Shown here: one piece after another, positions 5,577-52,363 of the stretch
Position numbering within the stretch: position 1 is the stretch's first letter
How the letters are laid out: the number at the start of each line of letters is the position of its first letter
Assembly: GCA_050261575.1 (NCBI GenBank)
Contig: JBLNDL010000015.1
Coordinates: forward strand, 1-62,413
Direction of reading: 5' to 3'
From: Sphingomonadaceae bacterium
GTDB lineage: Bacteria > Chloroflexota > UBA6077
Length of the DNA: 62,413 nucleotides
The notes under the pieces: model-generated
What the model was told of the DNA's origin: nothing
The model's database searches: none
The model's input: only the letters and a program-made list of their open reading frames with translations
Made by a program: the position numbers and the translations under genes

Positions 5577-6392
5577 CTAGCTCCTGCCGTTTGGCCCCCT
5601 GCTGGCGGTCTCGGTCAAGAGACCTGCGGCGCCCAGCAGCGACGAGATCCTGCTTGCGGCCTCCCGAACCGATTCCACCAGCGACTGCTCACGGTCGGGG
5701 GTGAAACGAGTGACGGGAACTGCCACGCTCAGGGCGGCCAGCAGACGCGGCGGCATGCCTCCCCAAATGGGCGCCGCAACACAGGCGTTGCCCGCGACGG
5801 CCTCTCCGACGCTGCGGGCCCAGCCCTGCGCCTTGACCAAGTCCAACTCGCGCCGTAGCGCGATCGGATCCGCTATCGTGTTATGGGTGATCTCTTGGAG
5901 GCCGCTGGCGAGGACCGTCTCCAACTGTTCCGCGGGGAGATGGGCCAAAAGCACCTTCCCTGCGGCGCCTGCATAGATCGGTATCCTGGTTCCGATAGAT
6001 ACCACCGATCTCACACCCTGACGGCTCTGCACGCTTTCGACACAGACGCGTTCGGCCCCGTCGGCGACGAATAGGTCAACCGTCTCATCGCAGCGGTCGC
6101 GCACGTCGCACATGACTGGGTAGGCGACCCGGCGGAAGTCGAGTCGCTCCAGGAAGCGAGCCCCCAACTCCAGAATCTTGGTCCCCAGGACGTATCCCTC
6201 GGATTGTGCGTCCTTTCGCACGAAGCCGTGGGCTTCGAGGGTCGTCAGGATGCGGTGTGTCGCCGTGAGAGGGTATTCCAGAGACCGGGCCAACTCCCTG
6301 GTCCCGATGGGCGAATCGGAGCGGCTCACCAACTCCAGAAGGCTCAGGGCCCTATCGAGTGCTCTAGAGGTATCGAAACCAGTCTTGTTCAT
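5577..6392 (-). CDS. IclR-family transcriptional regulator
   Basis: RAL.LLE wHTH, G.R.P.YA.A.GK.LLA, CVAAPI C-terminal domain; start uncertain. Confidence 0.92.
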   Translation of the reverse strand: MNKTGFDTSRALDRALSLLELVSRSDSPIGTRELARSLEYPLTATHRILTTLEAHGFVRKDAQSEGYVLGTKILELGARFLERLDFRRVAYPVMCDVRDRCDETVDLFVADGAERVCVESVQSRQGVRSVVSIGTRIPIYAGAAGKVLLAHLPAEQLETVLASGLQEITHNTIADPIALRRELDLVKAQGWARSVGEAVAGNACVAAPIWGGMPPRLLAALSVAVPVTRFTPDREQSLVESVREAASRISSLLGAAGLLTETASRGPNGRS

Positions 6393-6612
6393 CGGGTCCG
6401 ACCCAGCAGAGTAGAGTTGGAACGACTGTTCCGGAACAGTCGTTCCGAGTAGGCGTACCATCGCACTTTCGATTCCGGGCGTCAATACCCCCCTGCGGTA
6501 TCACCGATGCCTGCCGTCAGCATGTAAGGTGATCTCCTCGTGCACCATCCCAACGCAATCTACACCGGTTGCGCCTGACGGCAGTGATCTCCTCGCCTCC
6601 AGCGTCAAGCCC

Positions 6613-6642
6613 TTGCACCCGGCAATCGGTATCTGTTATCAT
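6613..6642 (+). promoter_or_regulatory. Sigma70-type promoter for the T-box/tRNA/leuS transcript
   Basis: TTGCAC (6613-6618), 18-nt spacer, TGn-TATCAT extended -10 (6634-6642) just upstream of Stem I. Confidence 0.65.
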
Positions 6643-6827
6643 TTCCGTGCGTTGAGCGGGAGCAGTAGGCCACTTCAAAGCAGAGAGCCGGGAGGGTGGA
6701 AACCGGCAGGGCAGGCAGAGCGCCGCAGGCCGAACTCGCCCGGGAGCAGCAGCGGTGAAGGCCAGTAGTCGCTGCCGGTTGGCGGCCGTTACAGCGCCAG
6801 CGAGCGGACGGGCGGATCCCGAATCAT

Positions 6828-6902
6828 GGGGCAGTGGCGCAGCGGGAGCGCGCTTCCTTGGCATGGAAGAGGTCAGGGGTTCAATTCCCCTCTGCTCCAC
6901 CA
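6828..6902 (+). tRNA. tRNA-Ala (anticodon GGC)
   Basis: Cloverleaf: acceptor GGGGCAG/CTGCTCC with G3:U70, D-stem GCGC/GCGC, anticodon arm CTTCC-TTGGCAT-GGAAG, T-arm AGGGG-TTCAATT-CCCCT, encoded ACCA end. Confidence 0.97.
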
Positions 6903-6995
6903 CGAGGGGCTCCTCGCAATCGGGAGCCCCGGCATCCCACTCGACCGTGGGACAGGGATCGAGACAAACGTCAAACAGGGTGGTACCGCGGAACG

Positions 6996-7030
6996 GCCTT
7001 TCGCCCCTGAACTCGGGCGAGAGGCTTTTT
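6996..7030 (+). terminator. T-box intrinsic terminator
   Basis: GCCTTTCGCCC/GGGCGAGAGGC hairpin followed by TTTTT; overlaps the antiterminator 3' strand CCCTG (7005-7009). Confidence 0.9.
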
Positions 7031-7190
7031 CGTGTTCCCTCGTTGGGGTCTCCGTGGGGACCGCCTTTGTAGACCACGGGCGCGGCAGGGGACACGCGAC
7101 GCGAGCGAGCACGCGAGGCGAGCGAGCACAGCCTCGCGGTCACGCCTGCCCCACGGACCACACAGCAGGCTACGCAGCGGAGGTCGACGG

Positions 7191-9641
7191 ATGGCAAAGC
7201 AGGTGGACAAGTACAACCCGAGCGAGATCGAGCCGAAGTGGCAGGCCTGGTGGGAACAGACCGGCATCTACAAGGTCCGGGAGGACCCCACCAAGCCGAA
7301 GCACTACGCCCTGGTCATGTTCCCCTACACCTCGGGTGACCTCCACGTGGGCCACTGGTACAACTTCGCCCCAGCCGACACCCACGCCCGATACAAGCGG
7401 ATGCGGGGCTTCAACGTCTTCGAGCCGATAGGTTTCGACGCCTTCGGTCTGCCGGCCGAGGAAGCCGCAATCAAGAACGGCATCAACCCGGCCGACTGGA
7501 CGATGCGCAACATCGAAAACATGACCCGGCAACTAAAGACCATCGGCAACATGTACGACTGGAGCCATTCCGTAGCCACTTGCCTGCCCGAGTACTACCG
7601 CTGGAACCAGTGGTTCTTCCTGCAGTTCTACAAGCGCGGCCTGGCCTACCGGGCCAATGCTCCGGCCAACTGGTGCCCCCACTGCGAGACCGTGCTCGCC
7701 AACGAGCAGGTCGAGGACGGCAAGTGCTGGCGGTGCGACACCATCGTCACCCGGCGCGACCTGGAGCAGTGGTTCTTCAAGATCACCGCCTACGCCGACG
7801 AACTGCTGGACTTCAGCGAGATCGAGTGGCCCGAGCGGGTCGTAACCATGCAGCGCAACTGGATCGGCCGCAGCGAGGGCGTCCAGTTCACCATGCCGGT
7901 GGCCGACCGCAGCGAGACCTTCGAGGTGTTCACCACCCGCCCGGACACCATCTTCGGCATCACCTACGCCGTCCTCGCCCCGGAGCACCCCTTGGTGGAG
8001 AAGCTGACGACCCCCGACCGGCGGCAGGAGGTAGCGGAGTACGTGGCGCAGGCTCGCCGGCTGACGGAGATCGAGCGGCTCTCCACTGAGAAGGAGAAGA
8101 CAGGGGTCTTCATCGGCTCCTACGCAGTCAACCCGGTCAACGGCAGAAAGGCGCCGATCTGGATCGCCGACTACGTCCTGGCCACCTACGGCACCGGCGC
8201 CATCATGGCGGTGCCAGCACACGACGAGCGGGACTTCGAGTTCGCCCGGAAGTACGGGCTGCCCATCGTGGAGGTGATCAGCCCCACCGGCCAGCCCACA
8301 GGCGAGCTGCATCAGGCGTACACGGAGCCGGGCATCATGGTCAACTCCGGCCCCTTCGACGGCATCCCCTCGGAGGAGGGCAAGGTCAAGGTGGCCGAGT
8401 ATCTGGAATCCAAGGGGATCGGCAGACGGACGGTGAACTACCGCCTCCGCGACTGGCTGATCTCCCGCCAGCGATACTGGGGCACCCCCATCCCGATGAT
8501 CTACTGCGACCACTGCGGCATCGTACCGGTGCCCGAGGATCAACTGCCGATCACCCTGCCCCGGTACGAGGGCCTGGAATTCCAGGCTCGGGTGAACCCG
8601 CTGCGGTACGATGAGAACTTTGTCAACACCACCTGCCCGCAGTGCGGCGGCCCCGCTAGGCGCGAGACCGACACGATGGACACCTTCGTGGACTCCTCCT
8701 GGTACTTCCTGCGCTACACCAGCCCGGGATACCAGGAGGGCCCGTTCGATCCGCAGAAGGCCGCCTATTGGATGCCGGTCGACCAGTACATGGGCGGAGT
8801 GGAGCACGCCGTCATGCACCTGCTCTACTCCCGCTTCTTCCAGCGGGTGATCCGGGACATGGGGCTGTCGAAATACGGCGAGCCATTCAAGCGGCTGTTC
8901 AACCAGGGGATCATCCTGGGCCCGGACGGTTTCCGAATGAGCAAGTCCCGCGGCAACGTGGTGAACCCGGACGACTACGTGAAGCAGATGGGCGCCGACA
9001 CCGTCCGCTGCTACCTGATGTTCATCGGACCATGGGACTCGGGAGGACCGTGGAGCGCCAGCGGCATCAGCGGGGTGTTCAAGTTCCTGAACCGGGTATG
9101 GGGCGTGGTGCTGCAGGAGGCACCCAGCCGGGGCGCGAGCGACGCCACGGCCCAGGCCGACAAGAGCCTGACCCGGGCCATGCACAAGACGATCAAGACC
9201 GTCACCGACGACATGGAGAAGTTTCGCTTCAACACCATGCTCGCCCGACTGATGGAGTTCGTCAACACTATGAACGCGACCTACAACTCCGTCTCGGCGC
9301 CGGTGTGGAAGGAGGCGGTGGAGAAGCTGATCCTGCTACTGGCCCCCAGCGCGCCCCATCTGGCCGAGGAGCTGTGGCACCGCGTTGGCCACGAGGAGAG
9401 CGTTCACACCCAGTCGTGGCCACAGTACGAGGAGGCACTCACCGTCGAGGAGATGGTGACCCTCGTGGTGCAGGTAAACGGCAAGGTGCGTGACAAGCTG
9501 GAGATCCCGGTGGGAACCCCAAGGGAAGAGGTGCAGCGGCTGGTACTGGAGCGGCCCCGGGTCCTGGCGCAGATGGATGGGCGCCGGGTGAAGGACGTCA
9601 TCTACGTACCCAACCGGCTGGTGAACGTGGTGGTGGTGTAG
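7191..9641 (+). CDS. leuS: Leucine--tRNA ligase
   Basis: MFPY.SG.LHVGH (HIGH), RMSKS (KMSKS), YGTGAIMAVPAHD editing domain, VQVNGKVR C-terminus; ATG 7191 with GGAGG. Confidence 0.98.
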   Translation: MAKQVDKYNPSEIEPKWQAWWEQTGIYKVREDPTKPKHYALVMFPYTSGDLHVGHWYNFAPADTHARYKRMRGFNVFEPIGFDAFGLPAEEAAIKNGINPADWTMRNIENMTRQLKTIGNMYDWSHSVATCLPEYYRWNQWFFLQFYKRGLAYRANAPANWCPHCETVLANEQVEDGKCWRCDTIVTRRDLEQWFFKITAYADELLDFSEIEWPERVVTMQRNWIGRSEGVQFTMPVADRSETFEVFTTRPDTIFGITYAVLAPEHPLVEKLTTPDRRQEVAEYVAQARRLTEIERLSTEKEKTGVFIGSYAVNPVNGRKAPIWIADYVLATYGTGAIMAVPAHDERDFEFARKYGLPIVEVISPTGQPTGELHQAYTEPGIMVNSGPFDGIPSEEGKVKVAEYLESKGIGRRTVNYRLRDWLISRQRYWGTPIPMIYCDHCGIVPVPEDQLPITLPRYEGLEFQARVNPLRYDENFVNTTCPQCGGPARRETDTMDTFVDSSWYFLRYTSPGYQEGPFDPQKAAYWMPVDQYMGGVEHAVMHLLYSRFFQRVIRDMGLSKYGEPFKRLFNQGIILGPDGFRMSKSRGNVVNPDDYVKQMGADTVRCYLMFIGPWDSGGPWSASGISGVFKFLNRVWGVVLQEAPSRGASDATAQADKSLTRAMHKTIKTVTDDMEKFRFNTMLARLMEFVNTMNATYNSVSAPVWKEAVEKLILLLAPSAPHLAEELWHRVGHEESVHTQSWPQYEEALTVEEMVTLVVQVNGKVRDKLEIPVGTPREEVQRLVLERPRVLAQMDGRRVKDVIYVPNRLVNVVVV

Positions 9642-52043: not shown

Positions 52044-52341
52044 AAACAAGAAGCCTCTCGTCCCTAGGGACGAGAGGCTCAGCCTTCGTGGTGCCACCCT
52101 GGTTGCCGGAAGACCGCTCCAACGAGAGGGAATCCCAGCATCTCTTCACGAGTACGGGAAACCGTAGGGTTTCCGATACCCGGCGCCCTGATAACGGGGG
52201 CCAATCCGGCGCGACCTACTCGGGGAGCACCCTTTGGGCCTGCGACTCCCGGGTCCATTCGTCGACGCGCCCGGTGCCGGCTCTCACCTACCCCGGCTCT
52301 CTGACCCTAAACGCAGCCGCTTACTAGTCCCGTTCACCGTC
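52044..52341 (-). promoter_or_regulatory. Trp T-box riboswitch (specifier UGG)
   Basis: Minus strand: AGTA, AGAGA, GGTGAGA, GAA-TGG specifier (52255-52260), CCGTTA, AGGGTGGCACCACG (52087-52100), terminator AGCCTCTCGTCCC/GGGACGAGAGGCT + TCTTGTTT. Confidence 0.93.
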
Positions 52342-52363
52342 TTTAGCGTGGTGGATTTCCCCC

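Follow-up and report, generated by a model that had tools for sequence, protein, structure and literature searches.

Among RNAs that sense tRNA, T-box riboswitches are the textbook example, and the leaders of tyrS, glyQS and leuS of B. subtilis are canonical examples of the transcriptional form. Co-transcription of tRNA and protein genes is also well known, from the E. coli tRNA-tufB operon and from the 'tRNA punctuation' of mitochondria. The locus described here lies on a stretch of 62,413 nucleotides (contig JBLNDL010000015.1, phylum Chloroflexota), referred to below as the window. The gene of leucyl-tRNA synthetase, leuS, is preceded by a leucine-specific T-box leader with a complete tRNA-Ala(GGC) gene in its Stem III. 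Within the sensor, the aminoacylation-sensing domain itself houses the gene of a different, essential tRNA. A T-box riboswitch of this kind, with a tRNA gene in Stem III, is conserved and apparently undescribed. The promoter, the T-box leader with its embedded tRNA, the conditional terminator and leuS are likely to constitute a single transcription unit.

A tRNA gene in Stem III of the leuS T-box leader

The elements of the locus are listed below in the order of the + strand, with the source of each assignment.

6613-6642, + strand: promoter, with TTGCAC at 6613-6618, an 18-nt spacer and the extended -10 TGTTATCAT at 6634-6642 (sequence reading and motif search)
6643-7031, + strand: Leu-specific transcriptional T-box leader, with Stem III interrupted (RF00230 alignment)
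6649-6747, + strand: Stem I, with GA/K-turn region, AGAGAG bulge, GGUGGAAACC distal loop and specifier loop (cmscan alignment)
6735-6737, + strand: specifier CUC, followed by G, in the motif GAA-CUC-G at 6732-6738 (cmscan alignment)
6750-6774, + strand: Stem II (cmscan alignment)
6776-6788, + strand: Stem IIA/B (cmscan alignment)
6802-6806, 6807-6810 and 6814-6820, + strand: 5' side of Stem III, namely the purine string GAGCG, the base arm GACG and the extension arm GGATCCC (cmscan and fold)
6828-6902, + strand: tRNA-Ala(GGC) gene, with G3:U70, discriminator A and encoded CCA (ARAGORN and RF00005)
6906-6930, + strand: first post-tRNA hairpin, arms GGGGCTCC and GGAGCCCC, without T run (minimum-energy fold of the leader)
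6935-6952, + strand: second post-tRNA hairpin, TCCCAC/GTGGGA (minimum-energy fold of the leader)
6955-6960, 6969-6972 and 6973-6974, + strand: 3' side of Stem III, namely the extension arm GGGATC, the base arm CGTC and the conserved AA (cmscan and fold)
6977-7008, + strand: T-box sequence and antiterminator, with helix A1 (AGGG/CCCU), bulge UGGUACC and helix A2 (cmscan alignment)
6995-7031, + strand: intrinsic terminator, a 12-bp stem at 6995-7026 followed by TTTTT (terminator scan; isolated fold of -24.5 kcal/mol)
7075-7155, + strand, between terminator and leuS: dispersed palindromic repeat of about 70 nt (blastn and fold)
7191-9641, + strand: leuS, leucyl-tRNA synthetase of 816 amino acids (table of open reading frames; Pfam PF13603 with E 2.9e-72, PF00133, PF08264)

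The Rfam T-box model RF00230 aligned over its full length (model positions 1-219) to 6643-7011 of the unedited window, with a score of 49.5 bits and an E-value of 9e-10 in the local search, or 1.0e-9 when the whole genome was searched. An earlier reading of the DNA letters alone (the sequence-only reading) had proposed Stem I with the Leu specifier GAA-CTC, Stem II, Stem IIA/B, an antiterminator and a terminator, and had suggested this Infernal comparison. The alignment and the terminator scan recovered every element, at positions that were exact or off by 1-2 bases. Between promoter and tRNA, a segment of about 185 nt shows the features typical of Stems I, II and IIA/B of a T-box. The sole large departure from the model is an insertion of 158 nt that replaces its 11-nt Stem III loop.

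The tRNA-Leu(GAG) that is cognate to the specifier is encoded in the window genome (contig C25) with a discriminator A, and the UGGU bulge of the antiterminator (6980-6983) is complementary to its ACCA end. The T-box sequence AGGGUGGUACCGCG was placed at 6977-6990 by cmscan. On the + strand, CGTC-AA is followed by AGGGTGGTACCGCG and then by the terminator stem. The 5' arm of the terminator overlaps the 3' strand of the antiterminator, with which it shares 6995-7008, so that the two structures are mutually exclusive. Antitermination dependent on uncharged tRNA-Leu(GAG) is the predicted mode of switching. A second T-box leader of the window (52063-52346, - strand; 84.2 bits over the full RF00230 model) is uninterrupted.

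The embedded tRNA gene is intact, as the sequence-only reading had it. ARAGORN returned a single tRNA in the whole 62-kb window, Ala(GGC) at 6828-6902, and the tRNA model RF00005 scored the same segment at 66.5 bits for a cut-off of 29. G3:U70, the discriminator A and the encoded CCA were read directly from the sequence. The sequence-only reading had also raised the question of whether this is the only gene of its kind; it is the sole Ala(GGC) gene among the 51 tRNAs found by ARAGORN in the genome, the assembly of which is rated 100% complete. One match to this tRNA was likewise found in each of G001 and G003, two genomes from other genera of the same family. The tRNA is 100% identical in the three genomes, and the flanking leader is 84-85% identical. 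The segment 6828-6902 thus appears to be a real and needed tRNA gene, the predicted product of which is mature and aminoacylated.

It is very improbable that 6828-6902 yields no decoding tRNA and acts as a structural, tRNA-like part of the leader. Its location inside a structured RNA would fit such a role, and in the available part of a report on GOLLD RNA the embedded tRNAs are proposed to be held back from maturation (PMC12990946). Against this stand the full tRNA scores, G3:U70 and the discriminator A, and the fact that the gene is the sole Ala(GGC) gene of a complete assembly and also of G001 and G003. Moreover, relatives without a T-box, presented below, carry a 99% identical gene as an ordinary tRNA gene with a promoter-like box and a terminator. 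The encoded CCA was considered as a special feature of the nested gene and rejected, as CCA is encoded in 27 of the 51 tRNAs of the genome; among the matches listed in the species scan described below, it is encoded in 60 of 85 nested tRNA-Ala records. The tRNA set of the window genome also includes three tRNA-Trp(CCA) and one tRNA-Sec. tRNA-Ile, tRNA-Tyr and tRNA-Ala(UGC) were not found by ARAGORN among the 51 tRNAs of this 103-contig draft, and may be located in unassembled rRNA operons.

In Stem III, GACG (6807-6810) is paired with CGUC (6969-6972) in the cmscan alignment, and the extension pairing GGATCC/GGGATC is present in the minimum-energy fold of the leader. The base and extension arms are separated by 3 nt on the 5' side (GACG to GGATCCC) and 8 nt on the 3' side (GGGATC to CGTC), and 7 nt lie between GGATCCC and the tRNA. 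The sequence-only reading had paired GACG/GATCCC with GGGATC/CGTC, so that the tRNA is looped out of Stem III and the geometry of the riboswitch is kept. The pairing is supported by cmscan, by the fold and by the covariation reported below, and the geometry by the full-length alignment and the intact flanks. In the available text of two publications (PMC7583486, PMC7778990), the discriminator domain is defined by the flanks 5'-RRRxG-Stem III-AA-3'. Both flanks are intact in the window, as GAGCG (6802-6806) and AA (6973-6974). What matters of Stem III is preserved, and the insert falls in the portion that is known to vary.

Conservation, covariation and distribution

The same composite leader is found in G001 and G003, where full-length RF00230 matches spanning the tRNA score 65.6 and 82.3 bits. 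In the alignment of the three genomes, the T-box motifs and the tRNA are invariant and the spacers have diverged. The structures added around the tRNA differ between the three. Hairpin 1 and the helix extension GGATCC/GGGATC are kept in G001 and absent from G003. In hairpin 2, three pairs are altered on both sides, TCCCAC/GTGGGA in the window genome becoming CCTCGC/GCGAGG in G001. In G003, which has neither hairpin and no extension, Stem III consists of a short base helix that closes a loop of about 100 nt containing the tRNA. Hairpins and extension are thus optional structured additions, and the base helix is the constant part. The two added hairpins and the helix extension are what distinguishes the member found in the window. 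GC-rich hairpins are found at the same position after the tRNA in other lineages, for example at loci L066, L096, L124 and L137.

The survey of Stem III covariation suggested in the sequence-only reading was carried out on 83 distinct loci. Contiguous Watson-Crick and G-U pairs were counted with a custom script, starting just after RRRNR on the 5' side and just before the A-rich linker on the 3' side. As a control, the same counting rule was applied to each 5' flank combined with all foreign 3' flanks; this is a count, not a phylogeny-aware test. With their own partner, the flanks form a helix of 5.96 bp on average, and 65 of the 83 loci reach at least 5 bp. With foreign partners, the mean is 2.88 bp and 5 bp or more are reached in 15.8% of 6806 pairings, a conservative control since the loci share kinship. 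The first four pairs occur in 41 distinct forms among the 83 loci. The base helix of Stem III is maintained by compensating changes. Free duplex folding of the flanks had also been tried as a measure. It gave -17.2 kcal/mol for own partners and -13.7 kcal/mol for foreign ones (Mann-Whitney p 7e-6), with only 13 of 83 loci below the 5% rank, and was replaced by the anchored count.

The distribution of the arrangement was examined in one genome per species, by searching for a tRNA T-loop followed by a T-box core within 34-94 nt. At least 119 stretches were found, and because exact motifs were required the counts are lower bounds. Among the matches listed, a tRNA on the same strand covers the T-loop in 102 of 119, and at least 83 of these tRNAs are tRNA-Ala(GGC), the records of G001 and G003 included. 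When 21 Ala(GGC) loci were analyzed with cmscan, a full-length T-box spanning the tRNA was found in 18. Nesting of other tRNAs was considered and rejected: at the 19 loci with other tRNAs among the matches listed, cmscan found a T-box in none, and these are chance matches to the motifs.

Among the same matches listed, a regular expression found the GAA-CTC-purine specifier in 76 of 84 distinct records, and 56 of 83 loci have leuS as the gene immediately downstream. The leucyl-tRNA synthetases (LeuRS) of these loci are 42-85% identical to that of the window over the aligned part, mostly 50-64%. A class IV (branched-chain-type) aminotransferase (PF01063, E 1e-46 to 1e-55) takes the place of leuS at L075, L085, L106, L108, L113 and L114. 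The downstream gene encodes a GNAT acetyltransferase at L040 and L072, and a methyltransferase, followed by leuS, at L096. The insert after the tRNA ranges from about 20 to about 77 nt across loci, and in the compact versions L042 and L104 Stem III abuts the 5' end of the tRNA. Among the matches listed, 53 loci have long flanks, and 18 of them carry a same-strand tRNA-Ala(CGC) gene 200-300 nt upstream of the nested one (L041, L052, L054, L061, L066, L075, L077, L087, L088, L091, L092, L096, L101, L103, L104, L106, L107 and L109), so that Stems I-II of the T-box are effectively the spacer between two alanine tRNA genes.

Judged by their names, the carriers among the matches listed include several classes of Chloroflexota (Ktedonobacteria, Thermomicrobiales and Sphaerobacteraceae, Anaerolineae, Caldilineae, Thermoflexales, Limnocylindria) as well as Syntrophomonadaceae, Gelria, Armatimonadota and a Peptococcaceae metagenome-assembled genome. 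Isolates are represented by Tengunoibacter tsumagoiensis Uno3 and by Thermosyntropha lipolytica DSM 11003. Far from being peculiar to the genome of the window, the arrangement is old and widespread. That an assembly error joined a tRNA locus to a T-box locus might be suspected, as the genome is a draft of 103 contigs. It is scarcely credible, since the parts follow in this order in independently assembled genomes of over 80 species, both isolates included.

The survey across Chloroflexota that the sequence-only reading had called for was made on a sample of 401 genomes at least 80% complete, representing 216 genera and including one unpublished genome, G048, that enters the tallies only. The nested pattern was found in 35 genomes of 24 genera, and the reversed pattern, used as control, gave no match in the 401 genomes. 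The pattern was not found in G002, a genome of the window's own family that is 85% complete, nor in families f2, f3, f5, f6 and f7 of the same order (0 of 7, 0 of 6, 0 of 6, 0 of 3 and 0 of 1 genomes, respectively). In G046, from the same class, leuS has an ordinary T-box of 217 nt with specifier GAA-CTC-G and no embedded tRNA (L019; contig C112, about 1859-2075, - strand; 95.7 bits).

In eight genomes from other families of the order (G032, G009, G014, G012, G018, G023, G026 and G020), a near-identical tRNA-Ala(GGC) gene lies just upstream of leuS, and these loci yielded no RF00230 match at E ≤ 0.001 and no T-box motif. At such loci (L015, L022, L023, L024, L025, L026, L027 and L029) the tRNA is 91-99% identical to that of the window. 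The locus starts with a TGnTAnnnT box; 25-45 nt further on comes the tRNA, which lacks an encoded CCA, and then a hairpin with its T run, and leuS. Terminators were called in all three of the loci tested. The T run is only about 15-35 nt from the start of leuS in G032, G012 and G023, which leaves little room for a separate leuS promoter and suggests that in these relatives leuS is read through from the tRNA promoter. The tRNA and LeuRS of the window are closest to those of these neighbors without T-box. The sister families would have lost the two halves of the riboswitch and kept the tRNA, the terminator and leuS.

Transcription and proposed function

Transcription of the window's leader is predicted to start near 6649. 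On the + strand of 6400-7300, TGNTANNNT and TTG[AC][CA]N each occur just once, in the leader promoter; within 6637-7300, its -10 element is the single extended -10 and the single TANNNT of that strand. The pattern CCTTGC-N18-TGnTATCAT, in which n varies, is conserved in the window genome, G001 and G003. The sequence-only reading had assigned both products to one promoter, and had named an independent promoter at 6790-6828 or after the tRNA as the observation that would overturn this. A motif search found no TANNNT hexamer on the + strand of 6643-7300. The presence of a single -10-like motif and its conservation in three genera favor one promoter for both products, and the motif survey speaks against a start of the sigma-70 type directly ahead of the tRNA, behind it or ahead of leuS.

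The ATG of leuS is at 7191, which corrects the sequence-only reading, and a spacer of 160 nt (7031-7190) separates it from the terminator. The repeat within this spacer has 39 further blastn matches, on both strands and on many contigs of the genome, and folds into a hairpin of -44 kcal/mol. It looks like an element of the REP or MITE type (repetitive extragenic palindrome or miniature inverted-repeat transposable element) and is probably a passenger. In L011 (G001), L012 (G003) and L023 (G018), a different palindromic repeat made of GCTGACAGC- and GCTGATAGC-like units is found at the same place before leuS.

The anatomy, its conservation, the covariation, the single-copy tRNA and the lack of an internal -10-like motif are observed; co-transcription, processing of the tRNA and a working switch are inferred. 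The promoter at 6613-6642 would drive one transcript through to leuS. It would begin with the 5' two-thirds of a Leu(CUC) T-box and the 5' strand of Stem III, continue with tRNA-Ala(GGC) and the two hairpins, return to Stem III with the 3' strand, and end with the antiterminator/terminator and leuS. The 158-nt insert would project away from the sensor. Uncharged tRNA-Leu(GAG) would pair with the CUC specifier and the UGGU bulge and stabilize the antiterminator, and only then would leuS be transcribed. Every transcript would carry the tRNA, which the cell's regular tRNA-processing machinery would excise; RNase P and the enzymes of the 3' end are presumed to do so because the cell has no other Ala(GGC) gene. 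As the tRNA lies upstream of the terminator, its output should track the strength of the promoter and not the supply of leucine. The sequence-only reading had also proposed that terminated transcripts would act as precursors of tRNA-Ala, and that cuts by RNase P and at the 3' end would limit the lifetime of the leader or give a riboswitch in two pieces joined by Stem III; these dynamic steps are likewise predictions.

Assembled contigs of six RNA libraries (shares 0.04-0.10) were available as transcript material, and four of these libraries were compared with the window. One contig, from X1, is near-identical to the window and lies inside leuS (7397-7587). Others come from relatives. Record 11 of X4 covers 6681-6882 at about 90% identity, record 1 of X1 has T-box-like sequence on either side of the tRNA, and contigs of X3, X4 and X6 join 6902 to 6969 through 14-16 other letters. 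These bridging contigs are compatible with co-transcription but are only a hint of it, because contigs cannot show a single transcript and the libraries may contain DNA.

Several observations weigh against a single, working unit. The leader of the window's own organism is not covered by contigs of the four RNA libraries compared. A generic sigma-70 scan of 6300-7400 called no promoter, the leader promoter included; the motifs searched for are sigma-70-like, and the promoters of this phylum may differ. The repeat-bearing spacer of 160 nt before leuS could hide an unrecognized start. The leader does not reach the RF00230 gathering cut-off of 93 bits and goes unreported at that threshold. Three of the 21 Ala(GGC) loci analyzed with cmscan lack a spanning T-box, namely L067, which ends at a contig end, L071, with no match, and L111, with a weak partial match. 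Within the class of the window, nesting is confined in the phylum sample to the window's own family (the window genome, G001 and G003). Finally, cleavage by RNase P during transcription, if fast, could sever the sensor from the switch.

On such grounds, the locus could be taken for two or three independent units, with a promoter of its own for the tRNA, leuS or both, and with T-box halves that are a decaying relic without regulatory role. The score below the Rfam cut-off, the long repeat-bearing spacer before leuS and the loss of the T-box in other families of the order, which kept the adjoining tRNA and leuS, would agree with this. We consider it unlikely. All conserved T-box motifs are intact and have remained invariant in three genera despite diverged spacers, the antiterminator and terminator are still mutually exclusive, and the + strand of 6643-7300 lacks a second -10-like hexamer. 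The low score is explained by the 158-nt insertion: six of the 21 nested loci tested, with shorter inserts, exceed 93 bits (100.7-133.2 bits). The window genome holds nine T-box matches, of which the nested leader is the lowest-scoring and only two exceed 93 bits. The single transcription unit is retained as the likely arrangement.

Whether the tRNA is a passenger of this unit or a working part of the switch is a further matter. As a working part, its extra 75-160 nt would delay the antiterminator and give tRNA-Leu more time to dock, and RNase P and 3' cleavage would retire the sensor or leave a hairpin-protected 5' end on the leuS mRNA. This is a tentative proposal that we do not favor at present. 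It gains from the exclusive association with one tRNA species and one position (at least 83 Ala(GGC) loci and none of 19 with other tRNAs) and from the persistence of nesting across phyla in which LeuRS is only 50-64% identical to that of the window. The recurrence, in several lineages, of GC-rich hairpins that lack T runs and closely follow the tRNA, the compensatory changes in hairpin 2 between the window genome and G001, and the abutting of Stem III on the 5' end of the tRNA in L042 and L104 also speak for it. RNase P is reportedly hindered when the acceptor stem is extended by pairing of the leader, according to the accessible part of one study (PMC9433436). On the other hand, G003 does without hairpins and extension, which are therefore dispensable; the spread in length of the post-tRNA insert, about 20 to about 77 nt, gives no hint of a tuned delay; and the sister families keep tRNA-Ala, terminator and leuS without any T-box, so that the linkage between tRNA and leuS survives without the switch.

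In its most developed form, the proposal makes the embedded tRNA-Ala an integral, selected component of the riboswitch. It might serve as a rigid extension of Stem III, as a delay in transcription and as a programmed site for RNase P and 3' processing, which splits the leader after the decision has been taken. Expression of leuS might thereby be coupled to the tRNA-processing capacity of the cell, by a two-piece, self-retiring riboswitch that would predate the divergence of Chloroflexota and Syntrophomonadaceae. This too is speculative, and we regard it as possible rather than probable.

Should the single transcription unit be real, the leader of a riboswitch would also be a tRNA precursor, and 'aborted' leader transcripts would be productive. 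leuS would be placed on a tRNA promoter, adding growth-rate control to leucine control. tRNA-processing enzymes would cut within a helix of the riboswitch, and the function of a two-piece T-box, as well as the order of folding, sensing and cleavage, would become testable. Experiments are within reach, since two carriers are in culture, Tengunoibacter tsumagoiensis Uno3 as well as Thermosyntropha lipolytica DSM 11003. As leaders of this kind fall below the Rfam cut-off (49.5 bits here), T-box surveys may undercount them, and annotation shows a lone tRNA upstream of leuS.

Comparison with known systems

The leader of the window shares with the canonical T-box (RF00230) the Stem I specifier, Stems II and IIA/B, the RRRxG-Stem III-AA arrangement, the UGGN bulge, the competing antiterminator and terminator, and a synthetase gene downstream. 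It differs in that the loop of Stem III is a whole tRNA gene for another amino acid, with optional hairpins, and in that the leader is proposed to double as a tRNA precursor. As in the tRNA-tufB operon and in mitochondrial 'tRNA punctuation', one transcript would yield a tRNA and an mRNA through RNase P and 3' processing. In those systems the tRNA stands between genes, whereas that of the window stands inside a riboswitch helix. The relatives without T-box, with promoter, tRNA-Ala, terminator and leuS in succession, resemble the simpler tRNA-tufB type.

Processing of the T-box leader of B. subtilis thrS is said to stabilize the readthrough mRNA (Condon, Putzer and Grunberg-Manago, 1996). A cut upstream of the terminator could likewise leave a structured 5' end on the mRNA predicted from the window. 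The thrS leader is cut by a general endonuclease at a site in the leader itself, whereas the predicted cut sites of the window would be supplied by the embedded tRNA.

No description of a tRNA gene inside a T-box leader was found in a search of the full-text literature, from which subscription journals are largely absent, so that absence from print is not proven. The arrangement is not mentioned in the parts returned of the TBDB paper (PMC7778990) and of an in-silico survey of 2008 (PMC2494555). Insertions as such are familiar: the accessible text of a 2020 review speaks of odd insertions found in each T-box domain (PMC7583486), and a lineage-specific one, stem Sa of staphylococcal glyS, is described in the available part of another publication (PMC9177973). 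As in the window, extra structure is tolerated in the discriminator region while the core contacts are kept. Insertions of the stem Sa type are small helices without an independent gene product, whereas that of the window is the gene of an essential RNA.

The nearest published analog found is GOLLD RNA, in which, according to the accessible part of the report (PMC12990946), tRNA sequence also lies within a larger structured non-coding RNA. GOLLD is there a large RNA associated with tRNA arrays and prophages; the host RNA of the window is a well-understood cis-regulator that senses another tRNA.

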